Assembly (NCBI GenBank): GCA_028693235.1
Contig: JAQUVW010000003.1
Span: forward strand, 182,069 to 246,068
Source of the DNA: Candidatus Gastranaerophilales bacterium
Lineage (GTDB): Bacteria; Cyanobacteriota; Vampirovibrionia; Gastranaerophilales; Gastranaerophilaceae
DNA length: 64,000 nt
Direction of reading: 5' to 3'
The position numbers were made by a program, and so were the translations under genes. This document shows, piece by piece, positions 33,836-50,913 of this stretch; the first letter of the stretch is position 1; the number at the start of each line of letters is the position of its first letter. The notes beneath the pieces are model-generated. The model saw nothing but the letters and a program-made list of their open reading frames with translations, was not told where the DNA came from and did no database searches.

Positions 33836-33846
33836 AATTTAAAAAA

Positions 33847-33987: not shown

Positions 33988-34003
33988 CTTCCGTTTTCTT
34001 GCA

Positions 34004-34173: not shown

Positions 34174-34184
34174 CACTATCACTT

Positions 34185-34209: not shown

Positions 34210-34286
34210 TGAGATTTGGATGAAAGACTTGATGTTTCTGCGAAACAGAGCAATTAATGTGTATGTAACCGAAAGGAGAAACACAC

Positions 34287-34484: not shown

Positions 34485-34701
34485 AAGAACCCGAGAAACA
34501 TTAGAAATTGAGTATGCTGAGTTTAGAAAAAAATTTGCTAAAGAGATTCAAATATCTTTTGAGAGCTACAAGCAAACACAGTTAAATAAATCATTTTACT
34601 GTTTCAAAGATGACAATTCAATGGAATTCAACTTTTACTTTCAAGTCCAATACAATTTCAACAGCTTTGGAAATTCAGCTTGGTATATAGAGAGGCTGTA
34701 A
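34468..34701 (+). CDS. Small hypothetical protein (77 aa)
   Basis: ATG 34468 preceded by aaggagg RBS (track start is TTG 34462); ends 1 nt before the transposase ATG. Confidence 0.45.
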   Translation: MILKNRRTRETLEIEYAEFRKKFAKEIQISFESYKQTQLNKSFYCFKDDNSMEFNFYFQVQYNFNSFGNSAWYIERL

Positions 34702-36540
34702 ATGGATATAAATTTTACACCAGAAAAGTCAAAACAAATTGCACTCGCAAGATTAGATTTAATTCACCAATGGCAAGAATTTAGAAGAAAATCTACAAAT
34801 AAATTATCTGCCGACTATGATTTTGTAAAATTACATAATTCTTCAAATTCATATTTATTTGAGATCTTAGGAAAAATATCGAGAGGAAGTTTGCATCGTT
34901 GGAATAATTTGTTAAATGGAAGTGAAGATTATACTTTACTTCTACCTCAGTATAAATATTCTTGTATTGTAGAATATCGAACAGTTTTAACCGACGAAGA
35001 AATCAGAATCTTTATGGGTTTGTTGCTACATCCGAACCGACTTTCAATCGGTAAAGCTACGGCATTGACAAAATACAAACTAAAACAACAAGGTCAAAAT
35101 TTTATCCCAGCCGATATAACATTCAGAAGATATGCAAAGTGGTTCAAAGACAACAATTATGACAAATGGATACTTGCCAGAGATGGTGAAAAAGCTCTGT
35201 CAGATAAAGTTGAACCATATATCAAACGTGATGCGAGTTTGCTTGAAGTCGGAGATATTTTAGTCGCCGACGGTCATAAATTAGCTTTTCAAGTGATAAA
35301 TCCATTCACAGGAAAACCCAAAATGGCGACATTAGTTGGATTTTTGGATTGGAAATCAACAGCTTTGGTTGGCTATGAAATTATGTTAGAGGAAAATACT
35401 CAATGTATAGCTTCCGCTCTCCGTAATTCAATAATAAATTTAGATATGATTCCCAAAGTTGTTTATCAAGATAACGGCAGAGCTTTTAGAGCAAAGTATT
35501 TTACAGACGATAAAGGGTTCTCGGAACTTGGTTTTAACGGATTGTACTCAAAACTCGGAATAGAAACAGTATTTGCAAGACCATATAATGCAAGGGCGAA
35601 AGTTATAGAACGATTTTTTAAAGAATTTCAAGAAGGTTTTGAAAAATTATTACCAAGTTATGTCGGCTCAGCAATTTCTGAAAAACCTGCGTACTTAAAA
35701 AGAAATGAAAGATTTCATGCAAATTTACATTCCGAATATGTACCGACAATTGAAGAAGCGGATTTTGGCAAGTGCGGAGTCGAACGAAGTGAACGAGCAC
35801 GTCCTGCGGCGGTGAACGGTGGAATGAAGCATTTTGCGAAGCAAAACTGCGGAATGAAATCCGAGTTCACCAAGCTGCCAACAATCCAAGACACAATAAA
35901 AATTATTGATATGTGGTTGAGTTTTAAAAATTCTCAACCTTGTCCAAATTCTCCTGACAAAATGATTGCAGAAGTTTTAGAAGATAGAAAGCGTCAAAAT
36001 ATAAACACTGATACATTGGACGATTTGATGTTAGCAACCGAAGTTAAGACAATTCAGAGAAATGGCATAAGATTTTTGAACTACGATTATTTTGATGAAC
36101 GACTTTATGGTTTCAAAAATAAAGTGCGGATAAAATACAACCTTTTTGATTTAACAAGTATCAAAGTTTTTACGATAAAAGGCGAATATCTTTGTAAGGC
36201 AGAGAGAGTAACCGAAACTCATCCGATGGCGAAGATTTTGGGTGACGTAAAAGATTTAGAAGATTACAAACAAAAAATTGAAAAACAACGGAAGTTAAGA
36301 AAGAAAACGATAAATTCAGTCAAGGAATTGTTATCTAATGATGAATGCAAATTTATTGAAACAAAAATTATAAAAAATGAAGAATTTTTAACACCCGTTA
36401 AAACGTCGTTTAAAAGCTCTTTAAATGGCGTTTATAAAAATAATTCTGAAAAATATGAATATCTTGTGAAAAATAATCCTCAAGATAAGTGGATTGAAGA
36501 ATTTAAACAAACAAAGGAGTACAAATTATTGTATGATTAG
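34702..36540 (+). CDS. DDE (rve-type) transposase of the MuA/TnsB/TniA class, carrying an in-frame GC-rich insertion
   Basis: Candidate catalytic D/D/E in VADGHKL, VYQDNGRAFRA, ARPYNARAKVIERFFKEF; Mu-transposase C-terminal barrel pattern GIRFLNYDYFDERLYGFKNKVRIKYNLFDLTSIKVF. Confidence 0.85.
   Translation: MDINFTPEKSKQIALARLDLIHQWQEFRRKSTNKLSADYDFVKLHNSSNSYLFEILGKISRGSLHRWNNLLNGSEDYTLLLPQYKYSCIVEYRTVLTDEEIRIFMGLLLHPNRLSIGKATALTKYKLKQQGQNFIPADITFRRYAKWFKDNNYDKWILARDGEKALSDKVEPYIKRDASLLEVGDILVADGHKLAFQVINPFTGKPKMATLVGFLDWKSTALVGYEIMLEENTQCIASALRNSIINLDMIPKVVYQDNGRAFRAKYFTDDKGFSELGFNGLYSKLGIETVFARPYNARAKVIERFFKEFQEGFEKLLPSYVGSAISEKPAYLKRNERFHANLHSEYVPTIEEADFGKCGVERSERARPAAVNGGMKHFAKQNCGMKSEFTKLPTIQDTIKIIDMWLSFKNSQPCPNSPDKMIAEVLEDRKRQNINTDTLDDLMLATEVKTIQRNGIRFLNYDYFDERLYGFKNKVRIKYNLFDLTSIKVFTIKGEYLCKAERVTETHPMAKILGDVKDLEDYKQKIEKQRKLRKKTINSVKELLSNDECKFIETKIIKNEEFLTPVKTSFKSSLNGVYKNNSEKYEYLVKNNPQDKWIEEFKQTKEYKLLYD
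35757..35880. repeat. GC-rich module B, in frame inside the transposase ORF
   Basis: gcggattttggcaagtgcggagtcgaacgaagtgaacgagc...ctgcggaatgaaatccgagttcacc; terminal inverted cggattt/aaatccg, internal hairpin ttttgc-gaa-gcaaaa; encodes an Ala/Arg/Gly-rich segment unlike the rest of the protein. Confidence 0.65.
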
Positions 36541-37213
36541 AAAATTTGTCAGAACGCAAAATGTTAAAAACTTTATAGGGCTTGTTGAAAATTTAATCAA
36601 TAAACCAAAGAACGTACCAAAAATGGCATTGGTTTATGGCGAACCCGGACTTGGTAAATCTCAAACTGCATTATGGCTAAGTTGCAAATATGATGCTATA
36701 TATTTGAGAGCAACAAATCTTATGACTGGTCGATGGTTACTTTAAGAACTGGTTAAAGAAATTGATGAAATACCGAGATTTTTGACTGCGGACAACTTCA
36801 ATTTACTTTGTAAAAAACTAAAACAGAAGCCAAAGCTGATTATCATTGATGAAATTGATTATTTGATGAATAATTCAAAAACAATAGAAACTTTGCGTGA
36901 TATTCATGATGAAACAGATTGCCCGATAATCTTTGTTGGGATGGGTTTAGCACATAGAAAACTTGAACGATACAAACATTTATATGATAGATTTTTAGAA
37001 ATTCTGCAATTCGAAACTTTTGAAGTAGCGGATTTAAAACAGATTTTTGATGAATTATCAGAAGTTACAGTAACTGCTGATGCAATTGAATATATCTATA
37101 AAAAATATAATCGTTTCAGGCAAATTATTCAGTTGATAAATCAGTTGGAAACTATTGCTAAAGAGAATAATTTTACTGAAATTACCGAAGAAACAGTGAG
37201 GCAGATAATATGA
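36533..37213 (+). pseudogene. TniB/TnsC/MuB-like AAA+ transposition ATPase interrupted by one in-frame TAA (36743-36745)
   Basis: Walker A GEPGLGKS before the stop and Walker B LIIIDEID after it, both in the same frame; the ATG overlaps the transposase stop. Confidence 0.75.
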
Positions 37214-37296
37214 AACGGATTTTCGGTAGGGCACCGTGTGAGCGAGAGCGAACCCAGCCCGTATGATGGAGCGGGACGTTACTCCCGCGACAACTC
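37214..37296. repeat. GC-rich module C (intergenic, after the ATPase)
   Basis: acggattttcggtagggcaccgtgtgagcgagagcgaaccc...ggagcgggacgttactcccgcg; aligns with module B from the CGGATTTT start; hairpin cggga-cgttac-tcccg. Confidence 0.6.
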
Positions 37297-37322
37297 GAAT
37301 AATTCAAGATGGAAAGGAAACT

Positions 37323-37880
37323 ATGGATATACTTAAATTAGCAAAACACCTAAAAGAATTTACGCTTGATGAAATTGAAATGATAGCTGAATGTGATTGT
37401 AAAACCGAACTTGAAAAGTTGTTAAGTGAACATAAAATAGCGTTTAAAAATAAAAAATACGAATACATTGAAAAACAAAATGAGGAATATTCAATATTTA
37501 TAAATAAAAAATCTAAAAATATAAATTATGAATTTACGGACGCCGTACACGATTTTTTAGAAAATTATGCAAAAAAATATTGTAAATCTGGTACTTGTAA
37601 AAACTACAGAACCATTTTTAATTATGGAATTTTACCATTTTTCAAAAATAAACATATTGGGGATATTCAAATTAATGATGTAAAAATTTTTTATAAAAAA
37701 TGTCAGGAATTAAATTTCAAATCAAGACGGATAAAAAACACTTTAGCTCTTTTAAATCAATTATTAAAATATTTTCAGGAGCAAGGATTTATAAAAAGTA
37801 GATGTATTTTTCAAGTAAAACGACTGACAGCCAAAAACGAATTTAATAAAAATAGGTTAATTTTTAAGGAGAATTTATGA
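37323..37880 (+). CDS. Stand-alone tyrosine-recombinase core-binding (phage integrase N-terminal SAM-like) domain protein; no catalytic domain
   Basis: FTDAVHDFLENYAKKYCKSGTCKNYRTIFNYGILPFFKNKHIGDIQINDVKIFYKK...IKNTLALLNQLLKYFQEQGFI fits the four-helix core-binding pattern; the ORF ends ~25 aa later; ATG 37323 with ggaaagga RBS. Confidence 0.55.
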   Translation: MDILKLAKHLKEFTLDEIEMIAECDCKTELEKLLSEHKIAFKNKKYEYIEKQNEEYSIFINKKSKNINYEFTDAVHDFLENYAKKYCKSGTCKNYRTIFNYGILPFFKNKHIGDIQINDVKIFYKKCQELNFKSRRIKNTLALLNQLLKYFQEQGFIKSRCIFQVKRLTAKNEFNKNRLIFKENL

Positions 37881-38296
37881 GTAAAAAACGACATTACAAC
37901 GAAGCAGAACGACTTTTTATATGTGATGGATTGTCAGCAGATGAAATAGCAAGAAAATTTGAGATTTCACGCAGAACAATTTTTTATTGGAAGAAGGAAT
38001 ATAATTGGGATAAGAAGCGAGCGGATTATTTGTTCAACAATACCAGAATGAGCTTTGAAATCAATGATTTTACAAGAAAGTTGATGGATAAAATTATGAC
38101 GGATATTGATAACAATAGACAAGTTAGCCAGTCAGAAATTTATACGGTTTTAAACTTAATAAAACGCATGCTAGAAATCAAAAATTACGAAGACGAAATC
38201 GTCAAAGCTAAAAAAGAAGAAAAACCGAAAGAACTGACGCCTGAATTGATTATGCAAATAAACAAAGATATTCTTGGTTGGGACGGAACTTATTAA
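37877..38296 (+). CDS. HTH DNA-binding protein (small-terminase-like / DUF1804-like N-terminus)
   Basis: AERLFICDGLSADEIARKFEISRRTIFYWKKEYNWDKKR is a helix-turn-helix followed by a W-rich motif; ATGA overlap with the upstream gene. Confidence 0.45.
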   Translation: MSKKRHYNEAERLFICDGLSADEIARKFEISRRTIFYWKKEYNWDKKRADYLFNNTRMSFEINDFTRKLMDKIMTDIDNNRQVSQSEIYTVLNLIKRMLEIKNYEDEIVKAKKEEKPKELTPELIMQINKDILGWDGTY

Positions 38297-38361
38297 TTAT
38301 ATTGAATCTACAAATTCTATTTAATATTTATGCTATTATTGATTATGGAATTAGTGTTCAA

Positions 38362-39354
38362 ATGAGGTTTTTAGTGAATAGTAACGGCCAAAACGAAATC
38401 ATAATTTATCAAGCTAAAAACGGCAAAACTCAAATTGATGTAAAACTTCAAGATGAGACAGTTTGGCTTACGCAAAAACAAATGGCTGAATTGTTTGATA
38501 AAAATGTAAGAACCGTAAACGAACACATTAATAATATTTTTAAAGAAGGTGAATTGAATAAAATTGCAGTTATCCGGAATTTCCGGATAACTGCAATTGA
38601 CGGCAAACAGTACGATACAAACTTCTATAATCTTGATGTGATTATTTCTGTCGGCTATAGAGTAAAGTCTTTGAGAGGTACGCAATTCCGTATTTGGGCG
38701 AACAGTATTTTGAAAGATTATTTAGTTAAAGGCTACGCTGTTAATGAAAAAGTTTTACAAACTCAAAGAGAAAAAATTACGGCTTTGCAAACTTCGATAA
38801 ATTTGCTTTCAAGAAGTTTGACTAATCAAATTGAAACAGTTGATGCGGCTCAACAGGTTGCAATTATTTTGGATAAATTTGCAAAAGGGCTTGATTTGCT
38901 TGATAATTTTGACCACAAAACACTTGATACTAAAGGCGAAACAAAACGTGAAGCAATTAGAATTTCAACAAAAGAATTTTTGTCTGTTGTAAATAAAATG
39001 AAATCAGAATTTGCGTCTGATGTTTTTGCAAACCCTAAAGACGATAGTTTTGATAGTTCTGTTAATCAGATTTACCAAACTTTTGACGGCACAGAACTTT
39101 ATCCGACTTTGGAAGAAAAAGCTTCTATGTTGTTGTATTTGATAACAAAAAATCATTCATTTTCTGACGGCAACAAACGTATCGCTGCAAGTTGTTTCTT
39201 GTATTTTTTGGATAAAAATGACATTCTGTATAAAAATAATTTGCCAACGATTGATAATGCAACCCTATTTGCATTGACGATTTTAATTGCCGAAAGTAAT
39301 CCTACAGAAATGGAAACAATGAAACAAATTGTTGTTAGTGTGTTGAATGGATAA
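38362..39354 (+). CDS. RhuM-family N-terminal domain fused to a Fic/Doc-type domain
   Basis: N-term IIIYQAKNGKTQIDVKLQDETVWLTQKQMAELFDKNVRTVNEHINNIF (RhuM pattern); C-term HSFSDGNKRIAA matches the Doc-type motif HxFx(D/N)(A/G)NKR. Confidence 0.7.
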   Translation: MRFLVNSNGQNEIIIYQAKNGKTQIDVKLQDETVWLTQKQMAELFDKNVRTVNEHINNIFKEGELNKIAVIRNFRITAIDGKQYDTNFYNLDVIISVGYRVKSLRGTQFRIWANSILKDYLVKGYAVNEKVLQTQREKITALQTSINLLSRSLTNQIETVDAAQQVAIILDKFAKGLDLLDNFDHKTLDTKGETKREAIRISTKEFLSVVNKMKSEFASDVFANPKDDSFDSSVNQIYQTFDGTELYPTLEEKASMLLYLITKNHSFSDGNKRIAASCFLYFLDKNDILYKNNLPTIDNATLFALTILIAESNPTEMETMKQIVVSVLNG

Positions 39355-39362
39355 AGATAAAC

Positions 39363-39611
39363 TTATTTATAAGTTTCTAATTTTTTACCTGTTTTTGAAT
39401 ACTTTGTAACAGTTCCATTCGAAGATTTTTTATAGACGAATTCAGTTTGTCCTTTTTTATTGTACTGAACAGTTTTTCCATTTGAATAAGTTTTTGTATA
39501 ACCGGTTGTTTGACCTTTTGAATTCTTGATATATTTTTTTGTTGTCGTACTTGCAAAAGCTGTTGATACAAATATTGTACAAATTAATGTTAATAGCAAA
39601 ATCTTTTTCAT
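39363..39611 (-). CDS. Small secreted Lys/Thr/Gly-repeat protein (82 aa)
   Basis: ATG 39611 with aaagga RBS; signal peptide MKKILLLTLICTIFVSTAFA; repeated K-x-G-x-T units. Confidence 0.45.
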   Translation of the reverse strand: MKKILLLTLICTIFVSTAFASTTTKKYIKNSKGQTTGYTKTYSNGKTVQYNKKGQTEFVYKKSSNGTVTKYSKTGKKLETYK

Positions 39612-39624
39612 AATGTTTATTCCT

Positions 39625-40137
39625 TTATTCAATGCAAATATTTTTTACATAATTATAAAATGTGTCAACAATTTCTTTTAAAATTAGCTCTGAAGATATT
39701 TCTTCGGATAATACAAATTCTTCGTTATAGCCTGATGTATTTAAAAATAATACGGATACCCCCATAGTATCATTCAATGTATTTATAGAATATTGAAATA
39801 AAATTTCATGAATTTCACATTTTTCATCAATATTATTAAGAGTAAGTAAAATTGTAATTGTGTTATTTCCAATATCATTTTCTTGTTGTTCTATGTTTAA
39901 TTTAATATTTTCAGGTAGTTCAATTTCTTCTTTCCATTTTTTCAATTTTAGAAAGGCATTTTTAATTGATGTTTTAAATAATTCAATATTAGTACTCTTT
40001 TTGGATAAGTTTTCAAATTCACTATGAGTCTTTTTATAATTAAAAAATATATCAGAAATTTTATTATGCCCATTTAATGATTTTAAATCTTTAAATGTAT
40101 TAATCATTTTTTCTTTTAGTTCATTCGTTTTTATCAT
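39625..40137 (-). CDS. Hypothetical cytoplasmic protein (170 aa)
   Basis: Clean ORF immediately upstream of the small secreted protein gene; no recognisable motif. Confidence 0.45.
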   Translation of the reverse strand: MIKTNELKEKMINTFKDLKSLNGHNKISDIFFNYKKTHSEFENLSKKSTNIELFKTSIKNAFLKLKKWKEEIELPENIKLNIEQQENDIGNNTITILLTLNNIDEKCEIHEILFQYSINTLNDTMGVSVLFLNTSGYNEEFVLSEEISSELILKEIVDTFYNYVKNICIE

Positions 40138-40213
40138 TTTTATTTTCCTTTTTCTTTTATTTACAAGTAATTATTATATGAAAGATTTTTCTAGTTAGGT
40201 ATTAGATAGGTGG

Positions 40214-40984
40214 TTAGTTAATTTCTAAACCTAAAATTTCAGTTATATATTTATTGATATAATATTTTGGGGTATTAGGTTTAATACTACGAAGATAATC
40301 TTTTACAATTATCATTTTATAATCATTTATCGACAATTTATAATCAATATTCAACTGTTCAAAAAAAGGCTCATAATCTTCTTCTGTAATCAGTTTTTTC
40401 TTTATAGCACTAAGTAAATCGTTCACGATTAATTTCTTTGTACATTTATACATCTTTTCAGAAATTTGAATCAAATTTTTTGAAATTAAACATATAAAAT
40501 CCTCAAACGAGTCTGCATTAATTACTTGATAATTTAAGTGTGCAGATAAATTTCTTTTATCAAATATTGCTTGATTATTTTTACATAGTGTAGAAGTTTT
40601 ATCAAAGCCAAGTATATGAAAAAAGCAATTTATAGCTGATTTTTCTTTGTTTTTAAATGTATAAATATCAATTTTCTCATCTCTTTTGATTTCGATTTTT
40701 TGACCATCACTAGAATTCAAACAGGATTCCGTTAATTGTAAATAATTTAATAGTTCTAAATGTTTTGAATCACAATTATACAATCTAACAAGAAAATAAT
40801 GTAAAACATAATTGTAAAAATGTGCTAAATTAATTACTGCATCATTATAAAAATCGGCTTCTTTTACAACTAATAGATTAGTAAACATTCTGAGAAAAAA
40901 GTCGTTTGACATTATTATTGGTAAATAATCTTTTAACTCATACAGTTCTTCTTCCAAATCAATTATTGTTTTCACAGGTATCAC
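40214..40984 (-). CDS. HEPN-like (Rx4H; Abi_2/DUF4145-like) protein coupled to the R-M operon
   Basis: Motif KRNLSAH (R-x4-H) mid-protein in a helical context; the start overlaps the end of the hsdM-S gene by 26 nt. Confidence 0.45.
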   Translation of the reverse strand: MIPVKTIIDLEEELYELKDYLPIIMSNDFFLRMFTNLLVVKEADFYNDAVINLAHFYNYVLHYFLVRLYNCDSKHLELLNYLQLTESCLNSSDGQKIEIKRDEKIDIYTFKNKEKSAINCFFHILGFDKTSTLCKNNQAIFDKRNLSAHLNYQVINADSFEDFICLISKNLIQISEKMYKCTKKLIVNDLLSAIKKKLITEEDYEPFFEQLNIDYKLSINDYKMIIVKDYLRSIKPNTPKYYINKYITEILGLEIN

Positions 40985-43418
40985 CCCAGATGGATTGGAT
41001 TTTGGTGTTGATTTTGGCTTGATGAAGTTTGATTAATTTTTTACATTCTTCAACAGCTGTTTCTTCTTCTTCGATTTTGGCTACGATTTCTTGTTGTTCT
41101 TCGAGAGCAATTAACGGAATTTCCAAATCGGAAATATAGCCTTTATTTAAATTTTGCTGTCTTGCCCCAGCTCTATGTAGCATATAATCTTCACGTTTTG
41201 ATGAAAAATAAAGATACAAAAAATACATATTGATTTTCGTATTAGGTTTTACTCCTGAAATTGCCTGATTAAAAGCCCCATCCCTGTCTAATATTGACAT
41301 TTTGAATGCCGCTGTATCATACATTCCAATTAATAAAGAACCTTTAGGGAAAAGCTTTGCATTTGAGTCTTTTAATCCCAAATTAGTTATCTTATCAACA
41401 GAATCCGTAGTGTAAGAATTGTTTAACTCTCCAGATGAATACCAAGGAATACTTCCATTATACCAGTATTCATTATTGCTTCTCGAAGGTGTACCACCTG
41501 ATTGGATATCACATATATCGCCAAGTTTAACTTTTCTCCAATTTGGATTAATTGGAAGAGTTGGTTTCCAATTATCGACTACTTTTTGAGCTCCGTCGAT
41601 TACGGCTTGATATCCGTCCAATTCCTTAACTATTTCTTCTTGAACCTCTAATGGTGGAAGTGGAATTTGAATGAGTGCGACTTCCTTGTTCATTAATTTC
41701 GGATTTCCTAATTTTACAACATAATTTTTTGCAACAACATTTAACACTCTTGCTACATAAGTCATATTTAAATTTTTAGGATTTATCGCTTTTAATGTTC
41801 CACATACATTTGTACAATTGAATTTCCCACTACGACTAAATACAGTTCCTGCATTAGCTCCATCCGTTGTCCATGTCGCATAATCACCTTCAAAATCAAA
41901 AGTGTTAATATATCCGAGCACTCCATTATCTGCTGTTTGAGAGGAATATACAGGATAAGTTCCTTTATTGTTTTCAATATCTTTTTTGCTAATTACTCTT
42001 CCTCTTCCCAATAAGCATATTTTATCTATTCTTACCATATCCCATTTACAATTTGAGTAGTCTTTTGTTTCTTTATAGCGGGAGGCAGTTAGATTATATT
42101 CACCATTTTCTGACAGCTTTGATTTTTCTACGATTGTTGCTAAAGGGTTCTTGTTTATTGATTGGATTGCTTCGCTATCGCTCGCAATGGCACTATTTTG
42201 CCATTGTTGGATTAATTCTGTTGCTTTAGGTAAGTCGTTTTTGTCGATTTCTCTGCGTTGAGCACCTAAATCATATCCGTCATTTTTAATTTCTACAAAT
42301 AAAATTTTATCCGTCTTTTTAGCAAGTTGTCTATCTAGTAGCAAAATTGATGTTTTAACACCTGAATACGGTTGAAAAATACCACTTGGCAAACTTACAA
42401 CGGCATACAAATAATTTTCATCAACAAGTTTTTTTCTTAAATTTTTGTAGGCATTTGCTGATTGAAAAACTATTCCTTCTGGCACAATTATTCCTGCTCG
42501 ACCTGTAGAATTAAGATGTTCCATAATATAATCGACAAACAAAACTTCCGAACGGTTTGCTTTTATTCCAAATTTATTGTGTGGCTTAATCCCTCCTTTT
42601 GGAGTCATAAATGGAGGGTTTGCGAAAATCACATCAAAATAATTATCCCATTTTGTTTGGTTTGTCAAAGTATCGTATTCATAAATTTTAGGTTGTTTGA
42701 ATTTATGCAAATACATATTTACAAGTGCAAGTTTTACCATATCAGGAGAAATATCATAACCTTGAATATTTTCTGTCAAAGTTTTTAGTTCTGTTGGATT
42801 CAAAGGTATATTTGTATTTTCTGAAGTTTTTAAAATATGCTTATACGCTGAAATCAAGAATCCTGATGTACCACAAGCCGGATCTAAAATTGTATCATCT
42901 TTTGTTGGATTAACCACATCTACTATAAAATCAATGATATGTCTTGGAGTTCTAAACTGCCCCGCATCACCTTGAGAGCCCATTATCGAAAGTAAATATT
43001 CAAATCCGTTACCCAAATTTTCGCTATTATTATAATCCAAATCATTGATTTCTTTTAAAAACAAAGTAAGAGTTTGACCGTCACGAAAAGGCAAGTATGC
43101 ACCTTTGAAAATGTTTCTGAAAAGTTCGGGGATTTGTTTTGCAAGTGGCAATTTTTCAAGTGCTTCTGTGTATAAATTCATTCGTGCTTCATTGCCTAGC
43201 TGTTTTGACATAAGTTTTGACCAAGCATATTCATTCAAGTCGTCAGTAAAAAATTCACGTTCGCCACCAAATTCAACCGTTTCTAAGTCCATATCGTCCA
43301 TGAACTTATAAATCATTGCAATCGTAATTTGCTCAATCTGAGCTTGTGGATTAGGGATTTTTCCAACCAAAACATCTCTTGCGTTATCTATCGTTCTTTT
43401 TATATCTTTTGTTAACAT
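40959..43418 (-). CDS. Type I R-M methyltransferase fused to a complete two-TRD specificity subunit (HsdM-HsdS fusion)
   Basis: N-half: DPACGTSGFL (SAM motif I), FANPPF (motif IV); C-half: two target-recognition-like halves, each followed by a conserved helix (LPPLEVQEEIVKELD..., IPLIALEEQQEIVAKIEEEE...) in one uninterrupted 819-aa ORF. Confidence 0.8.
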   Translation of the reverse strand: MLTKDIKRTIDNARDVLVGKIPNPQAQIEQITIAMIYKFMDDMDLETVEFGGEREFFTDDLNEYAWSKLMSKQLGNEARMNLYTEALEKLPLAKQIPELFRNIFKGAYLPFRDGQTLTLFLKEINDLDYNNSENLGNGFEYLLSIMGSQGDAGQFRTPRHIIDFIVDVVNPTKDDTILDPACGTSGFLISAYKHILKTSENTNIPLNPTELKTLTENIQGYDISPDMVKLALVNMYLHKFKQPKIYEYDTLTNQTKWDNYFDVIFANPPFMTPKGGIKPHNKFGIKANRSEVLFVDYIMEHLNSTGRAGIIVPEGIVFQSANAYKNLRKKLVDENYLYAVVSLPSGIFQPYSGVKTSILLLDRQLAKKTDKILFVEIKNDGYDLGAQRREIDKNDLPKATELIQQWQNSAIASDSEAIQSINKNPLATIVEKSKLSENGEYNLTASRYKETKDYSNCKWDMVRIDKICLLGRGRVISKKDIENNKGTYPVYSSQTADNGVLGYINTFDFEGDYATWTTDGANAGTVFSRSGKFNCTNVCGTLKAINPKNLNMTYVARVLNVVAKNYVVKLGNPKLMNKEVALIQIPLPPLEVQEEIVKELDGYQAVIDGAQKVVDNWKPTLPINPNWRKVKLGDICDIQSGGTPSRSNNEYWYNGSIPWYSSGELNNSYTTDSVDKITNLGLKDSNAKLFPKGSLLIGMYDTAAFKMSILDRDGAFNQAISGVKPNTKINMYFLYLYFSSKREDYMLHRAGARQQNLNKGYISDLEIPLIALEEQQEIVAKIEEEETAVEECKKLIKLHQAKINTKIQSIWGDTCENNN

Positions 43419-43451
43419 ATTCAGTTATTCCTTTCGCCTCTAGTGATGAGG

Positions 43452-45932
43452 TTACATATATTTATTTAGAACGATATTATCTTTAATGTATTCAGGCAAA
43501 GTCGCTCTAAAACCGTTCAAATGTTTATAATCTTCCATCGTGAAGCCTGCGTAAAAATTCAACTCTTGAAACTTTTTGCATTCAATAATATTTCTAAATT
43601 GTCCGTCAGTTGCGTACGCTTTTATAAAATTTTTGATATAGGGAACATATTCAGACTCAGGTTTGTAAATAGAAATGTACTTGTCACATTCATCTTCAAG
43701 CAATTCATCTTGGTTCTTAAATTTATTAATAAGTCCAAAAGCACGTTGCAAAACTTCTATCCAAGAAAGTCGTCTGTCAAGATTCTCTGATTTTCTCAAC
43801 TTATCCAAAGTAACAAATAAATTTGGTTTGTTTTCGTATTTTTCTTTTACAATATGTTCTGCTTGTTGCCAATCTTCATTATTTACAGCCGTTTTAATAT
43901 CCTCATCTTGTGTAAATGTTTCTTTTGCTTGTTGGAATAATTCTCTATCAATTTTCATTCCATCAAGTCCGATAGATATTTCCTTTAATTCTTTTAATTT
44001 ATCTGGGTCAAATATTTCAAGAGTTTCTAATGGAGGTTTTCCACCACCTGTTCCACCTTCGCCACTTCTTTCTCTTGGAAGTTTTAATTCTTCATCATAA
44101 TTGAATTCGTGTTCAAAATATTCACAATTTGCGAAGAAATCAAAGAGTTTAAAATATTCTTTTTCTTTGTATTCAGTCGGTTTTGTTGTAGGGTATTTAA
44201 AAGTGTTTTTTCTTGTACCACGACCTTTTATCTGAACAAAATCGGTAGGTGAGAAAATTGGACGCATTAATGCTAAGTTTAAAATATTTTGGCAATCATA
44301 GCCTGTTGTCATCATTCCGACAGTTACACAAATTCTTGTTTTTGAGGATTTATAATCATCTAAAAATCTTGAGTTTCCGTTTAAATTATCATTAGAAAAA
44401 TATGTTGTCATATCTTGAGCTGTAGGCACACAAGATGTAACTTGAACTGCAAAATCAGAGTTATACTTACCTTCCCAGATTTTGTGCGCCATTTGATTTA
44501 ATATTTGTGTAATTTTTGCACAATGGTCTTGGCTTACGCAAAATACAATCGTTTTACCAAATTCACCGGAAATAGGGTCTTTTAATCCATTTTCTAATAA
44601 TGTTTTACAGAATTGAATATTTGTATTTTCTGAGAAAAATTTCTTTTCAAAATCTCTTGCAAATACTTGTTGTTCTTCCTCGTCCCCGTCATCAGTAATC
44701 TGTACAACCGAATAACCTTTTTCTGAAAGAATTTCTGTTGTAATTTCAGTTCTGGCGTCAACAACTTTTGGATTGATTAAAAATTTATCTCTAACACCAT
44801 CAAGCAAGCTATATCTAAAAGTTGGTTCACCACTTTCGCAGCCAAAAGTTTTATATGTATCAAGTAAAATTCTTCTTTCCAACGCCTTAGGGTCTTCAAA
44901 TTTTAGTTTTTTAGTATCAACATTTCTTATATAATCTTTTGGTGTTGCAGTTAATCCTAATTTATAGCCGATGAAATATTCAAATACTGCCCTTGAATTT
45001 CCTCCAATGCAACGATGGCTTTCATCAGAAATTACAAGGTCAAAATCGGTTGGAGAAAATATTCTTTTGTACCTATCATCAACTAAAAGGCTTTGAATAG
45101 TAGTAATTACGACTTCTGCTTTTCGCCAATCGTTTCTGACTTCTTTATAAATTACACAAGTATAATCTTTTAAATAATCATCAAAATTCTTTTTAACCTG
45201 TTTTTCAAGTTCGATTCTATCAACCAAAAATAAGACTCTTTTGGCGTTCCCTGTTTTTAAAAATAATTTAATAATACCTGCAGAAGTTAATGTTTTACCG
45301 GTACCTGTTGCCATTTCAAATAGAAATCTGTTATTATCCTCTTTTGCTGATTGCTGTAATGCTTTTATTGCATTGATTTGGTAATCTCTTAAAAGTCTAT
45401 AACCATTATCAAAACAGAATTTCTTGCGTTTTGATTCATCAATATAATCAGGTTCTTTTAGCAAATTCGGATTTTGCATAAGTGCAACATATTCTTTTGT
45501 AATATTTTCAAAATACAAAGTCTTAGTATTGGGCTTGAAACCTGTTCTTTGCTCTAAGGATTCTTGCGTAGGCATTGATGTTATAATTTCAGGATTACCG
45601 ATTTCGATATCCCAAAGATAATGAATATTTCCGTTTGAAAGAATTACAAACCTAATATTTTGACTCATTGCATAAGCTCGTGCTTGGTCTTTTGCAAAAA
45701 GCGGATTTATATCTTCACGTTTTGCTTCTAAAACACAAAGTGGGAAACCTTTAGAATCAAACAATAAATAATCTAAAAGTCCGGTTTTAAACTTATCATC
45801 TCTTTTTATTTTGGTTGAATATTCTAAATCGACATTAGCTCTGCCTTTTTCATCATCAATCAAACGCCACTCAGCATCTTCAAGTAATTTATTAATTTTT
45901 ATTCTTGCTTTAGCCTCAGATTCTGTTTTCAT
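43452..45932 (-). CDS. hsdR: Type I restriction enzyme R subunit
   Basis: N-terminal PD-(D/E)xK (DYLLFDS...VLEAKRE), helicase motif I MATGTGKT, motif II DESH, EcoEI-R-like C-terminal domain; ATG 45932 with aggtg RBS preferred over the track GTG. Confidence 0.88.
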   Translation of the reverse strand: MKTESEAKARIKINKLLEDAEWRLIDDEKGRANVDLEYSTKIKRDDKFKTGLLDYLLFDSKGFPLCVLEAKREDINPLFAKDQARAYAMSQNIRFVILSNGNIHYLWDIEIGNPEIITSMPTQESLEQRTGFKPNTKTLYFENITKEYVALMQNPNLLKEPDYIDESKRKKFCFDNGYRLLRDYQINAIKALQQSAKEDNNRFLFEMATGTGKTLTSAGIIKLFLKTGNAKRVLFLVDRIELEKQVKKNFDDYLKDYTCVIYKEVRNDWRKAEVVITTIQSLLVDDRYKRIFSPTDFDLVISDESHRCIGGNSRAVFEYFIGYKLGLTATPKDYIRNVDTKKLKFEDPKALERRILLDTYKTFGCESGEPTFRYSLLDGVRDKFLINPKVVDARTEITTEILSEKGYSVVQITDDGDEEEQQVFARDFEKKFFSENTNIQFCKTLLENGLKDPISGEFGKTIVFCVSQDHCAKITQILNQMAHKIWEGKYNSDFAVQVTSCVPTAQDMTTYFSNDNLNGNSRFLDDYKSSKTRICVTVGMMTTGYDCQNILNLALMRPIFSPTDFVQIKGRGTRKNTFKYPTTKPTEYKEKEYFKLFDFFANCEYFEHEFNYDEELKLPRERSGEGGTGGGKPPLETLEIFDPDKLKELKEISIGLDGMKIDRELFQQAKETFTQDEDIKTAVNNEDWQQAEHIVKEKYENKPNLFVTLDKLRKSENLDRRLSWIEVLQRAFGLINKFKNQDELLEDECDKYISIYKPESEYVPYIKNFIKAYATDGQFRNIIECKKFQELNFYAGFTMEDYKHLNGFRATLPEYIKDNIVLNKYM

Positions 45933-46017
45933 AAACACCTATTTAGGATTAAGTATAGTTATATGAATATCACAAAAACTAATATTTTAATACCTAATTT
46001 AAAATATGTAAATATTT

Positions 46018-46054
46018 TTGTTTTCAAATTGTTTCGCAACTAAATTGAAAACAA
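46018..46054. promoter_or_regulatory. Palindromic candidate operator between divergent hsdR and merR-family genes
   Basis: ttgttttcaaatt (46018-46030) and aaattgaaaacaa (46042-46054) are 12/13 complementary, 11-nt spacer. Confidence 0.5.
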
Positions 46055-46091
46055 TTTCTGTAGCAAATAACATGCTAGAAAGTGAGGTGAA

Positions 46092-46451
46092 ATGTTAGAT
46101 TTAAATAAACCAATATTAAAAGTAAGCCAAGTTGCAAAAGAAATAAACCTATCTGCTGATAGATTAAGAACTTATGATGAAGAAAAATTGGTTATTCCAT
46201 ATCGTGAAAATAATAATACACGATTATATAGTTATAATGATGTGTATTGGCTAACAAGTTTGAGAAAATTAATAGGGAAAAATAATCTTTCAATATTAGG
46301 TTTTAAAGAAATTTTACGTCTAACATATTCAATATCCGATTCTGATTTTGAAAAATTTGTAAAAAGACAGAAAAAAGATTCTATTTGGCACATTATTGCC
46401 GACATGCGCCAAAATCCTAATTATTTGAAATTGAAAGAGTTTTATAGTTAA
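46092..46451 (+). CDS. MerR-family transcriptional regulator
   Basis: N-terminal winged HTH VSQVAKEINLSADRLRTYDEEKLVIPYRENNNTRLYSYNDVYWL. Confidence 0.75.
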   Translation: MLDLNKPILKVSQVAKEINLSADRLRTYDEEKLVIPYRENNNTRLYSYNDVYWLTSLRKLIGKNNLSILGFKEILRLTYSISDSDFEKFVKRQKKDSIWHIIADMRQNPNYLKLKEFYS

Positions 46452-46617
46452 ATTTTTACTTAAAAACATTTATGAAGCTAAAATAAAAAAACAGGAAAAT
46501 CAAAGGGGCATTAGGGTTTATAAATTATACGATTTAACCTCTGCTGAAGTCAAAATAATCGACAATAACACTAAAATATTCAAAAAATATTTTAATTATG
46601 AAATAGATGAAAAATAA
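46435..46617 (+). pseudogene. Possible 3' remnant of an R-M/BREX-type methyltransferase or specificity gene
   Basis: Start-less open frame ending ...RGIRVYKLYDLTSAEVKIIDNN...*; the (V)Y.LY.LT..E...I motif is a common C-terminus of type IIG/BREX methyltransferase proteins. Confidence 0.3.
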
Positions 46618-46739
46618 AATGATATTTTTTATTAAGAATAACATTATAATAATATCAATATTATTTCTATTACTATTGTACATTTAAAGAAAAATTATTA
46701 TACTAATAATTTATAAAATATTTGTTGTAGAATTTTACT

Positions 46740-47756
46740 ATGGTTAATGTAAAAAAGACAAAAAAGAAAACAAGAAATGCCTCAGCTTCGATTTTTGGTT
46801 GGGATTTTCAAACAAATGCTGCAATTTTACTAATGCTTGAAAATATAAAACGTGCAGATAGTGTAAAAGTAGAGAGCCAAACTGAAGATATAGAAATAAA
46901 ATTAACAGACGGAAACATTATATATTCCCAAGCAAAATCAATACTAAATGCAGATGATACTGCAAATTTATCAAAAAAGTTAAAAGATGCAATAAAAACT
47001 TTAAATGATGCGAGCAAAAATGATAACGTTGAAAAATTAATATATATAACTAACCATTCTAATCCGTTAAGTGATCAATCTACAGTTGGCTATTTTAGTA
47101 CAACATCCCAAATTCCTTATATAGATTTACCGAAAAAATGCAGAAACAAAATTGATAAAATTATTAAAGATGGTAAATATGATATAGATACAAATAAAAT
47201 ATATATTGCAGTTTTACCTTTTATCGGGAGTGAAGAAAATAATCGGTACAAAGAAATAAAAAGGGCCGTTTTTGAATTTATAGGTCAACTTAATATGATA
47301 ACTAATATAGATAGTAAGAAAATATTAGATACATGGCAAAAAGAATATTTTTTTAATTCTACTGTTCCTGATGACACAATTACAATAACAAAGAAAAAGA
47401 TGATGTGGACATTGATTGTTCAAATGTGCGAAATGGATATAGGGGATGAAATTCTTGAAGATTGCGATTCTGCTCAAATACAAGAAATAAAAAACAATTA
47501 CAATAGCATTATCAACATAATGTCTGATGACTTCTCATTGGTTTCCAAAGTTCTTGGAAAGTATTCTGATTATAAAATTAAAGGAGAAGGGAATTTACAG
47601 TCTTTTATTAGGACAAAATACAAAGATTTTGAAAATGAATTTATAGATAATTATTTATCTACGGAAGATAGAAAATGTTTAATTCAAATCATATTAAAAA
47701 AAATTATTTTAAAAAGATTTCATATAGAAAAAATAAAGGAGGCTGCTAATTTATGA
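46740..47756 (+). CDS. Cap4/DUF4297-like PD-(D/E)xK nuclease (LmuA-like effector)
   Basis: N-terminal FGWDFQTNAAILLMLENIK...VKVESQTEDIEIKLTDGNIIYSQAKS matches the G(F/W)xFQ...E..D(I/V)...Q(A/V)K pattern of DUF4297. Confidence 0.6.
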   Translation: MVNVKKTKKKTRNASASIFGWDFQTNAAILLMLENIKRADSVKVESQTEDIEIKLTDGNIIYSQAKSILNADDTANLSKKLKDAIKTLNDASKNDNVEKLIYITNHSNPLSDQSTVGYFSTTSQIPYIDLPKKCRNKIDKIIKDGKYDIDTNKIYIAVLPFIGSEENNRYKEIKRAVFEFIGQLNMITNIDSKKILDTWQKEYFFNSTVPDDTITITKKKMMWTLIVQMCEMDIGDEILEDCDSAQIQEIKNNYNSIINIMSDDFSLVSKVLGKYSDYKIKGEGNLQSFIRTKYKDFENEFIDNYLSTEDRKCLIQIILKKIILKRFHIEKIKEAANL

Positions 47757-49216
47757 ATATAGAGTCTCTTAAAATCCAAAAAGGATTATTTCATTGGTTT
47801 TTTAATTTTAATTCTATTGTTACACTGATAAATAGTGAAAATAATAGTACGGGCAAAACGACTCTTTTACGGTTTTTACTTTATGCAATGGGTTTTTCTA
47901 TACCGAGTACAAAAGGTTTAAAAATGGAAGAATATACTTGTTATTTGAAGGTAACAAGCGATTCAAATGAGCATTTTGATATTACAAGAACACAAAATTA
48001 TTGTTCTTTAAAAATGATTGATAATAAAATTGAATATTATTCGTTGCCGGCAGATAAAGATATTTTATTATCAAAAATTTTTGGTATAGAAAATTTAAAT
48101 ATAATTAATAATATACTCGGAATAATGTATGTTGACCAAGAAAAAGGTTGGACTTTACTTAATAGGGGCGTTGTTATTGGTAGTAATCATTTTAACATTC
48201 ATAATTTTGTACAAGGTCTTGGTAATATAGATTGCAGTGAACTTTATAATAATTTAAATTATTTAACTTATCAGTTAAATAAATATAAGAGTATGTTTGA
48301 TGTTGCAAATTATCAACTACAAATCCAAGACATAACCCAAAGTAAAAAATACGACTCCTTAGATGATGAAATTAATAAAAAAATCGTAACACTTCAAATA
48401 CAAAAAAAGCCACTCGTTTTGGAATTAGAAGAATTAAAAAAGGTTTTAAACAAAAATAAAAATTTCAAAAATTATATTTCAAAGATGCAATTATCTGTTC
48501 AAAATAAAGATGGTATTAAAATCCCAGTTAATGCTAAAACAATTATTGGTTATACCGACAATAATGAATATATTTCAACAAAAGTTAATATATTAAAAAC
48601 TCAAATCGTAAAAATTGATAATAAAATAAAATTCTTAATTAATGAAAAAAAACAAGTAATGCCGTTAATGTCTGTAAAAACTCTAATCGAGCAATTTGAT
48701 AATGATATTTCAAAAATCAATATAAATTATAATGCTGTAAAAAATATGATAAATAAAATTAATATAGAGAAAAGAAATATAGAAACAGAAATAGACATTA
48801 AAACTAAATCCGAAACTGAAATAGTTAATATGCTAAACAATATTATAAGAAAATATACGGAAGAATTAGGCGTAAACTCTTCATACCTTAGTCCGAGAAA
48901 GGACTATATTTTTACATCTGATTTGAAAAGTTTAAGTGGTGCAGTTTTTCATAAAATAGTGTTTGCTTTTAAATTAGCTTATGTATTTTGCTTAGAACAA
49001 TATGCACATATAAATATTCCTATAATTTTAGATTCTCCTCGAGGAAAAGAAATAGATGATTGCAACATTGAAGAAATGATTAAGATTTTAAAACGTGATT
49101 TTAGCAATCATCAAATTATTATTGCTTCTATTTATAAATACAATTTTAGTAAAATTAATTTTATTAACCTGAATAATGGTTTATTAGAACTAAATAGTCA
49201 ATATTTTATGAAATAG
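47753..49216 (+). CDS. SMC/ABC-type ATPase with central coiled coil (LmuB/DUF3732-like, short)
   Basis: N-terminal Walker A NNSTGKTTLLRFLLYAMGF, long K/N/I-rich coiled-coil middle, C-terminal signature-like SLSGA and Walker B IPIILDSP; ATGA overlap with the nuclease gene. Confidence 0.6.
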   Translation: MNIESLKIQKGLFHWFFNFNSIVTLINSENNSTGKTTLLRFLLYAMGFSIPSTKGLKMEEYTCYLKVTSDSNEHFDITRTQNYCSLKMIDNKIEYYSLPADKDILLSKIFGIENLNIINNILGIMYVDQEKGWTLLNRGVVIGSNHFNIHNFVQGLGNIDCSELYNNLNYLTYQLNKYKSMFDVANYQLQIQDITQSKKYDSLDDEINKKIVTLQIQKKPLVLELEELKKVLNKNKNFKNYISKMQLSVQNKDGIKIPVNAKTIIGYTDNNEYISTKVNILKTQIVKIDNKIKFLINEKKQVMPLMSVKTLIEQFDNDISKININYNAVKNMINKINIEKRNIETEIDIKTKSETEIVNMLNNIIRKYTEELGVNSSYLSPRKDYIFTSDLKSLSGAVFHKIVFAFKLAYVFCLEQYAHINIPIILDSPRGKEIDDCNIEEMIKILKRDFSNHQIIIASIYKYNFSKINFINLNNGLLELNSQYFMK

Positions 49217-49228
49217 AGTTTAAAACAA

Positions 49229-49264
49229 CATATATCTTCATCTCAAAGTTAATTTTATATCAAT
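49229..49264. repeat. Right-end repeat copy R1 (catatatcttcatctcaaagttaattttatatcaat)
   Basis: ~27/35 identical to 49377-49410; its reverse complement contains ACTTTGAGAT, resembling the left-end TTGAGAT motifs. Confidence 0.6.
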
Positions 49265-49283
49265 AAGACTGATTAATTAAATT

Positions 49284-49310
49284 AAGATTTAGCGTCCAAA
49301 AAGTTCCGAA
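49284..49310 (+). repeat. Copy of the left-end repeat at the right side (aagatttagcgtccaaaaagttccgaa), same orientation as 33955-33987
   Basis: Direct comparison: agatttagcgtc(c)aaaaa(a)(t)gt(t)ccgaa. Confidence 0.65.
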
Positions 49311-49508: not shown

Positions 49509-50516
49509 TTACATATTTTTGATTTTGCTTATCTCTAGAGATAATTTTTTATTTTTTCCAATAGGCAATTTAAAGTTTACGATTTTTTTGATTTTTATCT
49601 TTGATGATTCAGGCTTTTGTTTTTGTAGCCAATCATTTAAAAATGGTGTTTTTACTAAAACCTTAAAGAATTCATCTGCACGAGTGCAATCGGGATTTTT
49701 CCATGGTTTTATTTGTGTCGCATAATGCAGTTAAATTGGATGTTGCATAGCGTCTTTAATATCTTGTGCTGTATGAATTAGGTCATTTTCAAAATCTTCA
49801 TCCGTTTTATATAAATCATAAACATAAGTGCAAACAACACTGTTAAGCGGCATTAATTTTATTTTAGGATAACAACATAAGTTAATAACATCTTGCTCCG
49901 GCTGCATAATTCTATATGCGTTTTTTGTGGCACAATCTATAAAATTTTCCCCCATATTATCTCTACGCATTTTACTTAAATTAAAAATATAATATCCCGC
50001 ACTAACCAAAATTTGGCTTTGTTCTTCTTCTGAAAAATTTTTTTCATAATTGCTCTTTACACATTGATAAACCCAGCTATTTTTTTTAAGTGCTCCTTTG
50101 CACCCTGCAAAATAAAAATCCTCATTTACATCAAAATCAATATAGGTTTTTGAAATATCGCCAAGCCAAACAACATCGACATCTGTGATAATAATTTTTT
50201 CATATTGCGGAAAAATACTTGCTGGTAAAAATTTGTAAAACATTTCTTTTGAATAATGTCCTTTAATGTTTAAGTTTTTCCACAAGTTATCAAATTTGTT
50301 TTCCATATTAATAAATTCTAATGTTGCGTTTAAAAAAGGGGCGATTGTTTCTTGTAATTTTTTTTGATTTTCTTGTGTAATATCTGTATGCAAAACATAT
50401 AATTTATAATTATAATTTTTATCAGCATTATCAAGCATTGAATAAAAAGACACACTGGCAGGCAGTGCATAATTGTCATCAAAACAGTGCATTACTGGAA
50501 TTATTTTATTGTTCAT
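49509..50516 (-). pseudogene. Family 8 glycosyltransferase (LPS glycosyltransferase-like) interrupted by one in-frame TAA (49731-49733)
   Basis: N-part: IPVMHCFDDNYALPASVSFYS, DxD in IIITDVDVV; after the stop the same frame continues LHYATQIKPWKNPDC...FFKVLVKTPF for 73 codons, which is the conserved GT8 HY..x.KPW region. Confidence 0.7.
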
Positions 50517-50836: not shown

Positions 50837-50913
50837 TGGTCGGGATGACACGATTTGAACGTGCGACCCCCTCGTCCCAAACGAGGTGCGCTACCAAGCT
50901 GCGCCACATCCCG
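50837..50913 (-). tRNA. tRNA-Pro (anticodon TGG), CCA encoded
   Basis: Reverse complement folds as acceptor cgggatg/catcccg, anticodon arm cctcg-ttTGGga-cgagg, T-arm gcacg-ttcaaat-cgtgt, then ACCA. Confidence 0.92.

Follow-up and report, generated by a model that had tools for sequence, protein, structure and literature searches.

What kind of system is encoded by two overlapping genes at the extreme right end of a genomic island in a Candidatus Gastranaerophilales bacterium? The question was raised by a preliminary description of a 64,000-nucleotide stretch of contig JAQUVW010000003.1 (the window, to which all positions below refer), in which the pair at 46740 to 49216 was proposed to join a Cap4/DUF4297-like nuclease to a structural maintenance of chromosomes (SMC)-like ATPase, in the manner of the Lamassu defence systems. 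The analysis presented here establishes the homology and fold of both proteins, the conservation of their catalytic residues, the strict linkage of the two genes and their carriage in mobile and defence loci. Both genes are intact, and the pair is probably a diverged, shortened relative of type I Lamassu, the two-gene form without LmuC, within the PADLOC family PDC-M46.

The PDC-M46 gene pair

Gene 1 (46740..47756, + strand, 338 aa) and gene 2 (47753..49216, + strand, 487 aa) both start with ATG, are both intact in the list of open reading frames (ORFs) and overlap by the four nucleotides ATGA. The motifs quoted in the preliminary description were found in their translations, namely FGWDFQTNAAILLML, VESQTEDIEIKL and YSQAKS in gene 1 and NSTGKTTLLRFLLYAMGF, SLSGA (aa 393-397) and IPIILDSP (aa 422-429) in gene 2. 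A Candidatus Gastranaerophilales metagenome-assembled genome encodes identical proteins, annotated there as hypothetical (PHV37_06650 and PHV37_06655). An exhaustive search of 50%-identity cluster representatives yielded 800 relatives of gene 1, and a protein search yielded more than 1830 relatives of gene 2. Thus, the two are real genes and not chance ORFs. The G+C content is 0.23-0.26 across 46-50 kb versus about 0.33 elsewhere in the window. In DNA so rich in A+T, scans for promoters and terminators told little (38 sites versus 32.6 expected), and an Rfam scan of the locus returned nothing besides the flanking tRNA.

Both proteins were assigned with the hidden Markov models of PADLOC-DB v2. 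Gene 1 matched PDC-M46A (E 1.9e-104, aa 10-337 on model positions 3-334 of 335) and gene 2 matched PDC-M46B (E 1.3e-164, aa 1-480 on model positions 1-478 of 483). With full-length matches to A and B in adjacent, co-oriented genes, the locus is a member of PDC-M46, and no structural difference separates it from this catalogue entry. PDC systems including PDC-M46 are described as unpublished candidates, and one genome is reported in which PADLOC labelled the same genes both PDC-M46 and Lamassu (PMC11811056). The searchable literature assigns PDC-M46 no function, mechanism or explicit Lamassu membership, and in the supplements of a Bacillus cereus paper the family appears in the name table only. 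Searches of Pfam and NCBIfam gave no meaningful match for either protein, with neither DUF4297/Cap4_nuclease nor DUF3732 appearing, the latter not even at E<=1 for gene 2; the only trace was SMC_N at E 0.1. The profile search that had been suggested as a check of novelty therefore gave a divided answer: Pfam DUF4297 and DUF3732 were indeed not matched, whereas strong full-length matches were obtained to a catalogued, unpublished family. Because the family is already catalogued as PDC-M46, the pair is a shortened variant of a known system and not something new.

Because single-sequence searches of the Protein Data Bank (PDB) gave nothing useful for either protein, profile searches were needed, and structure models were made with AlphaFold2. 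The model of gene 1 (predicted local distance difference test, pLDDT, 89.7; predicted template modelling score 0.87) comprises two domains. An N-terminal nuclease domain of mixed alpha/beta fold and Cap4-type PD-(D/E)xK character (aa 14-185; 46779..47294, +) is followed by an all-helical C-terminal domain (aa 186-338; 47295..47753, +), in which seven helices between residues 192 and 336 are predicted with high confidence (192-208, 218-229, 244-263, 265-280, 286-300, 308-324 and 326-336). The nuclease motifs are G20-x-x-F23-Q24, E45, E49-D50-x-E52 and Q64-x-K66, in keeping with the pattern of Cap4-type nucleases, G-x-x-(F/Y)-Q ... E-D-x-E ... Q-x-K. Across 73 relatives of gene 1, residues G20, F23, Q24, E45, D50, Q64 and K66 are invariant or nearly so, and E49 and E52 are nearly invariant in the family alignment of 57 relatives.

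The best PDB match of the gene 1 family profile was the nuclease BcLmuA of a type I Lamassu (9ux7_C), with a marginal E of 0.037 over 53 residues. In this alignment K66 falls on BcLmuA K59, and the K59A mutant of BcLmuA is nuclease-dead and defence-defective (bioRxiv 10.1101/2025.06.23.660979). A Foldseek search of the gene 1 model against the PDB gave the Salmonella nuclease SeLmuA (9hr5, 2.8e-5) as the top match, followed by HerA-DUF4297 (9c1m, 1.3e-4), Cap4 (6vm5, 4e-4 and weaker) of the cyclic oligonucleotide-based antiphage signalling system (CBASS) and Hachiman HamA (8zue, 9e-3), all four with probability 1.00. The proposed assignment as a Cap4-type PD-(D/E)xK nuclease is thus supported by predicted structure and motif, and not by membership at the Pfam level.

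The N-terminal nuclease fold and the pattern G-x-x-(F/Y)-Q ... D ... (E/Q)xK are shared with Cap4, HamA and HerA-DUF4297. The partners or sensors of these proteins are a SAVED/CARF domain with a cyclase (Cap4), the HamB helicase (HamA) and the HerA hexamer (HerA-DUF4297), whereas the window pair combines the nuclease with an all-helical C-terminal domain and an SMC-like ATPase. An affiliation to CBASS did not follow, as the C-terminal domain of gene 1 is purely helical and free of SAVED or CARF, and the neighbouring genes encode a MerR protein, a type I restriction-modification (R-M) system and a family 8 glycosyltransferase (GT8) rather than a CD-NTase. The C-terminal domains of short LmuA proteins are bundles of 5-6 helices that bind LmuB (PMC12663957). 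By this likeness, the C-terminal domain of gene 1 presumably docks on the coiled coil of the ATPase. Only profile positions 11-63 aligned with BcLmuA, and no sequence similarity between the two C-terminal domains was detectable. Two relatives of gene 1, P0276 (576 aa) and P0314 (438 aa), are much longer and match in the nuclease domain only (profile positions 3-251 and 3-215). They may carry other C-terminal domains, and hence have other partners.

Gene 2 was modelled with a pLDDT of 85.6 as a Rad50/SMC-type head split by a coiled coil, which agrees with what had been read from its motifs. The N-lobe of the head (aa 1-157; 47753..48223, +) contains the Walker A motif N31-S-T-G34-K35-T36-T37 and the Q-loop D128-Q129, the latter within the invariant block DQEKGWTLLNRG. 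The C-lobe (aa 355-487; 48815..49213, +) contains the signature L394-S395-G396-A397, the Walker B motif I-I-L-D427-S428, E433 and Q454. Between the lobes lies an antiparallel coiled coil (aa 162-352; 48236..48808, +), consisting of an ascending helix (162-245), an apex (aa 246-270; 48488..48562, +) with a beta-hairpin at 248-258 (strands 248-250 and 256-258), and a descending helix (271-352). The arms are about 84 residues long, without CxxC in model or alignment, and show mid-arm breaks at 196-202 and 303-310, where the pLDDT dips. An alignment of 48 relatives of gene 2 was extended to 83 with their genomic loci. G34, K35 and T36 are kept in 82 of these 83 and Q129 in all of them; G396, D427 and E433 are each present in 83 of 83, and S428 in 82; the signature as a whole is likewise invariant or nearly so. 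Short Lamassu ATPases have the deviant Walker B consensus hhhhD[Q/S/T/E] (PMC12663957), and the sequence I-I-L-D427-S428 fits the hhhhDS form of short LmuB. A 'DS' of this deviant kind has been reported for both BcLmuB and VcLmuB.

The sole significant PDB match of the gene 2 family profile was the ATPase BcLmuB (9ux7_A, 2.2e-12), with both head lobes and the middle aligned. The N-lobe aligns to BcLmuB residues 14-142, including GKSS and YIDQDDSW, and 'ILDSP' of gene 2 aligns with 'CMDSF'. BcLmuB was also the top Foldseek match of the gene 2 model (2.8e-16). SbcC, the LmuB proteins of type II Lamassu (about 2e-9), SMC heads and Rad50 came next and were all weaker, which leaves BcLmuB better than SbcC and type II LmuB by seven orders of magnitude. 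The relation was also found in the reverse direction. When searched against PADLOC-DB, the BcLmuB fragments taken from the profile alignment matched PDC-M46B at 4e-13 and 9e-8, among the LmuB models, and BcLmuA 12-63 matched PDC-M46A at 1e-4, directly after the LmuA models. The PADLOC LmuB models match gene 2 partially (best 1e-20, aa 271-467), and a Pfam scan of 48 gene 2 relatives gave AAA_23 and SMC_N only, with DUF3732 not among the top families. Judged from these comparisons, the relation of gene 2 to LmuB appears to be one of significant remote homology and not of family-level membership.

Since the heads of SbcC and Rad50 match strongly in structure (2e-9 and weaker) and SbcCD has been proposed as the ancestor of Lamassu (PMC12663957), the pair could in principle be a housekeeping DNA-repair complex, a miniature analogue of SbcCD/Rad50-Mre11. 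These complexes likewise have an ABC-type head split by an antiparallel coiled coil and recognise DNA ends. They differ from the window pair in their coiled coil, which is much longer and bears a Zn hook, in a canonical Walker B motif, in their Mre11/SbcD phosphoesterase partner and in their vertically inherited distribution. Gene 2 is paired with a nuclease of the Cap4 fold, and an Mre11/SbcD phosphoesterase is absent. The distribution of the family is patchy: a pattern scan found 207 matches among 185,579 species-representative genomes, mostly in Clostridia and also in Gastranaerophilales, Bacteroidota, Spirochaetes, Fibrobacter and Alphaproteobacteria. Spread over many phyla and always set in mobile or variable regions, where the G+C content is locally low, the family makes a housekeeping role in repair extremely improbable.

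Relation to Lamassu systems

Type I Lamassu is defined by having two genes and no LmuC (Doron 2018; clade S in PMC12663957; BcLmuAB in bioRxiv 10.1101/2025.06.23.660979). Related loci were collected, 85 of them analysed by script and four more (L086-L089) fetched later, 89 in total. A gene 1 homologue lies directly upstream of the gene 2 homologue, on the same strand, in all 82 scripted loci that have upstream DNA, the remaining three simply having none. The four loci fetched later also carry the A-B pair, which brings the count to 86 of 86. The overlap of A and B is usually 4 nt. No third gene emerged, as no neighbouring gene family occurs in more than 13 related loci; the commonest families are a C5 DNA methyltransferase and a serine recombinase. 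Within the window, the overlap of gene 1 and gene 2 leaves no room for an LmuC. The absence of LmuC noted in the preliminary description is thus real, although it is not unusual, being the type I architecture.

Two apparent exceptions to this linkage were considered and rejected. A first search gave 81 matches to A versus more than 1830 to B, which would have fitted a swapping of effectors. Yet every examined locus has A upstream of B, and A is represented by 800 clusters; the imbalance is an artefact of word-index sensitivity. The second was a 112-aa ORF on plasmids of lactic acid bacteria, considered as an LmuC. In the Leuconostoc citreum plasmid NZ_CP042394.1 (2749-5362), two ORFs just upstream of B encode A, one of 279 aa for the nuclease and one of 112 aa for the C-terminal part. 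As the 279-aa and 112-aa ORFs are both homologous to A, the shorter one is the detached C-terminal part of A and not an LmuC. Such plasmid copies were found in 8 PLSDB records, at about 30% identity, and the split of A in them reflects either a frameshift or an effector that is naturally encoded apart from its docking domain.

A third component could also be sought upstream. A gene for a MerR-family protein with a helix-turn-helix (HTH) domain (46092..46451, +; MerR_1 4.3e-11) lies 288 nt upstream of gene 1 on the same strand and has a weak match to PADLOC mad1 (2.5e-8), from which a three-part system with MerR as sensor or repressor could be proposed. However, a MerR-like sequence occurs in none of the 89 related loci, and the DNA homology to the closest related locus begins 25 nt upstream of gene 1. 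The MerR gene is next to a divergent hsdR and may equally be the regulator of that R-M system. The proposal is largely refuted by these observations and very unlikely to be right, and the MerR gene was judged to be outside the system. The strict A-B linkage, the lack of a conserved third gene and the absence of MerR elsewhere describe a module that is complete with two genes, as in type I Lamassu.

The three-gene Lamassu systems were compared as well. Type II or short Lamassu LmuACB (DdmABC of V. cholerae and the system of Salmonella enterica; 9UXH, 9HQU, 9HR5 and 9NYG) is also called ABC-three-component (ABC-3C), which the preliminary description had offered as an alternative relative. It has an SMC-like LmuB, without Zn hook in V. 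cholerae, and a Cap4-nuclease LmuA, and its folds match both window proteins. This LmuA is held back in monomeric form and becomes active as a tetramer once DNA ends are sensed. In contrast to the window pair, type II Lamassu needs its middle component LmuC, which is absent in the window and in the 86 of 86 related loci; its LmuB has 570-650 aa, and its Foldseek value is about 2.5e-9, compared with 2.8e-16 for type I LmuB. The ABC-3C alternative was dropped accordingly.

On the other hand, BcLmuAB from Bacillus cellulasensis (9UX7/9UX8) is the best solved relative of both gene 1 and gene 2, by profile, by Foldseek for gene 2 and by the reverse tests. It has the same order of lmuA and then lmuB, and no LmuC. 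Its LmuA is a Cap4-type nuclease with a helical C-terminal domain (315 aa versus 338 aa in gene 1), with the lysine of Q-x-K aligned (K59 with K66). Like gene 2, BcLmuB has a Rad50-like head with GK(S/T), a DQ Q-loop, a 'DS' Walker B motif and a short, kinked coiled coil. The two systems differ in sequence (about 17% identity by Foldseek), in the length of the ATPase (562 aa versus 487 aa) and in the apex, where BcLmuB has a CQYC Zn hook and gene 2 a conserved beta-hairpin; the distal coiled-coil arms of gene 2 also appear about a third shorter. Furthermore, the Pfam DUF3732/DUF4297 and PADLOC LmuA models do not recognise the window proteins, and the C-terminal domain of gene 1 is not detectably similar in sequence to that of BcLmuA.

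BcLmuB carries its CQYC hook at 285-288 and kinks at 210-225 and 351-357 (bioRxiv 10.1101/2025.06.23.660979), and the mid-arm breaks of gene 2 are analogous to these kinks. A central CxxC Zn hook was found in none of the 83 gene 2 relatives. The apex motif G254-x-x-I-P258-V259-N...T263..G266..D269 is conserved among them, with a conservation of 0.59 for the apex versus 0.49-0.50 for the coiled-coil arms. As estimated from the model and not from a superposition, the distal arms would comprise about 35-45 residues, compared with about 60 in BcLmuB. Since gene 2 is without the Zn hook of BcLmuB, the geometry of dimerisation and of LmuA docking may differ. The number of Zn hooks varies between 0, 1 and 2 among short Lamassu systems, and the hook is absent in the V. 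cholerae system (PMC12663957). For this reason, a missing hook does not exclude Lamassu as a whole.

These differences lead to the question whether an SMC-like ATPase and a Cap4-fold nuclease of common ancestry with Lamassu might work by another mechanism, for instance with the ATPase loading a constitutively associated nuclease on foreign DNA, as in restriction or Wadjet-like systems, and with no release, oligomerisation or abortive infection. With its altered apex and apparently shorter distal arms, gene 2 may have a changed platform for LmuA docking, and the dissimilar C-terminal domain of gene 1 would fit this as well. However, loss of the Zn hook is common in short Lamassu systems that act by sequestration and release, including that of V. 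cholerae (PMC12663957), and domain order, the size of gene 1, the deviant Walker B motif and the operon order are all like those of type I Lamassu. A different mechanism on a shared ancestry is thus rather unlikely.

Several further observations weigh against an assignment to type I Lamassu. The putative H-loop residue H453 of gene 2 is not conserved (H in 51 and N in 30 of the 83 relatives). The Foldseek matches have template modelling (TM) scores of about 0.4 with large root-mean-square deviations and are no proof of a common quaternary arrangement, although such values are expected for flexible two-domain or coiled-coil models. Gene 2 lacks the Zn hook used by BcLmuB and is short, as had been pointed out in the preliminary description. 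The gene 2 family has a median length of 484 aa over 83 relatives (443-531 in extended ORF calls), full-length PADLOC LmuB models have 550-657 positions, solved LmuB proteins have 562-653 residues and short LmuB averages about 600 aa (PMC12663957), which makes gene 2 60-170 aa shorter than the solved or modelled LmuB proteins. For gene 1, the profile match to BcLmuA is confined to 53 residues at E 0.037, no PADLOC LmuA model matches, and PF14130 Cap4_nuclease was reached by one of 57 gene 1 relatives in the Pfam scan (E 0.038). Neither gene 1 nor gene 2 has a Pfam DUF3732 or Cap4_nuclease match. Finally, PDC-M46 is still only a candidate system, described as unpublished (PMC11811056). Because the pair fails the family-level sequence tests for LmuA and LmuB (Pfam, PADLOC LmuA and length), it was not filed as a canonical member of Lamassu. 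Even so, it very probably works like Lamassu. Gene 2 is closest to type I LmuB by fold and by profile, reciprocally so in PADLOC-DB, and the Lamassu-like logic proposed earlier is upheld, as is the view of a compact branch rather than a textbook system.

The island and the mobility of the cassette

The pair is located in a 15.3-kb island (33958-49310) that is bounded by a direct repeat of 29 nt at 86%. The left copy (33958-33986) lies 122 nt 3' of a tRNA-Gln gene (33762-33836). The right copy (49282..49310, +), which is context and not part of the system, follows the gene 2 stop by 66 nt, in keeping with the position at the extreme right end that had been described. The two copies share the exact 18-mer AGATTTAGCGTCMAAAAA at 33961 and 49285, and only 0.59 matches are expected for such a repeat even with three mismatches allowed. 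The backbone of the island consists of a Mu-type transposase (34702-36540), a TniB-like fragment (36782-37213; 143 aa versus 229 aa in L086), an integrase fragment (37263-37880; 205 aa versus 546 aa in L086) and a DUF1804 HTH gene (37877-38296). The apparent decay of the mobility genes may mean that the element can no longer move.

The remaining cargo includes further genes of the defence type. A RhuM/Fic-domain protein (38278-39354, +) matches PADLOC PDC-S23 over its full length (3.9e-126) and is a second candidate defence gene of the island. A type I R-M system (40959-45938, -) comprises a fused methylase-specificity protein of 819 aa (N6_Mtase and two Methylase_S domains) and an EcoAI-like HsdR of 828 aa, from which the MerR gene is divergent; the latter may be its regulator. 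Directly downstream of the methylase gene and on the same strand are two ORFs without Pfam or PADLOC match (39625-40137, 170 aa, and 40214-40984, 256 aa), with the lowest G+C of the island (0.23-0.26). Just beyond the right repeat lies a GT8 glycosyltransferase gene (49731-50516, -; G+C 0.26-0.30), followed by tRNA-Pro (50837-50913). The low-G+C tract therefore extends past the repeat-bounded island.

The closest relative of the pair, L086 on a Logan contig (SRR26820301), has 85% protein identity and lies at the same end of a like element. That element has the same backbone of transposase, TniB, integrase and HTH gene, and its cargo is a HinfI-type type II R-M system instead of the type I R-M system and the RhuM/Fic gene. 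By blastn, the sole stretch of high DNA identity to L086 (84.8%) is a 2.5-kb mobile cassette (46715..49215, +), which starts 25 nt upstream of the gene 1 start codon and ends at the gene 2 stop codon. Compared with this 85% in the cassette, the backbones are about 66% identical in DNA, which suggests cassette exchange between related elements. Other copies of the cassette were found on a Mob/TraG element, on plasmids of lactic acid bacteria, in a Ruminococcus phage and where a P2-like prophage ends, and copies also occur next to R-M systems, Shedu-like (SduA_C) genes and Fic genes. In the Ruminococcus phage NatCom_2329 (PV036414.1), an A-B pair with a 4-nt overlap lies at 1011-3517, near the left end of the complete genome. 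Its proteins are 33% and 37% identical to those of the window, and a DNA methyltransferase gene follows.

Such a tight cassette of 2.5 kb, at the ends of a transposon-like island and a prophage, in a phage genome, on a Mob/TraG element and on small plasmids, might mainly serve the elements that carry it, by addiction, post-segregational killing or the exclusion of competing plasmids and phages. V. cholerae Lamassu (DdmABC) acts against plasmids (PMC12663957), which would agree with such a role. No conserved, antitoxin-like small gene adjoins the pair, however, and this explanation is not truly exclusive of a Lamassu-like defence function, since element-borne defence is the rule. A function mainly in the service of the carrier elements is therefore improbable.

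A likely mechanism and its meaning

How would a shortened relative of type I Lamassu operate? By homology to BcLmuAB and to the LmuACB systems of V. cholerae and S. enterica, we infer a stoichiometry, a trigger, a release of the nuclease and a defence phenotype along the following lines. Two ATPase protomers would dimerise via their coiled coils, with the conserved beta-hairpin at the apex in place of a Zn hook. The dimer would hold one nuclease monomer inactive through its C-terminal domain, near the distal coiled coil. The ATPase head, for which ATP binding would be required, would recognise free ends of double-stranded DNA, or intermediates of replication, from a phage or plasmid that enters the cell. 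The released nuclease would then oligomerise and degrade DNA indiscriminately, and the infection would be aborted.

PDC-M46 might go further and constitute a distinct, very compact Lamassu clade, in which the beta-hairpin replaces the Zn hook or hinge and the distal, effector-docking part of the coiled coil is about one-third shorter. This proposal is a tentative one and somewhat doubtful. If true, it would imply a new geometry of dimerisation and effector sequestration, possibly with another trigger specificity. PDC-M46 would in that case also offer a compact SMC-like immune sensor that is easy to study and is spread, in a cassette of 2.5 kb, by the transposons, phages and plasmids of gut anaerobes.

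No new principle is involved, as type I Lamassu already has this logic, these two folds and this operon architecture. The earlier description and its interpretation are correct, with their novelty limited by the catalogued PDC-M46, and the family is best regarded as a type I Lamassu variant that is shortened and lacks the hook. If validated, this would add to Lamassu a shorter form with two genes (338 + 487 aa) and no hook, and an orphan PADLOC candidate missed by standard domain databases would gain an assigned mechanism. The small SMC-like sensor could then be a handy model for the coupling of DNA-end sensing to effector release. The cassette is carried on phages, plasmids and transposon-like islands of Gastranaerophilales, Clostridia, Bacteroidota, Spirochaetes and others, and by this spread it is relevant to conflicts between mobile elements in gut microbiomes.

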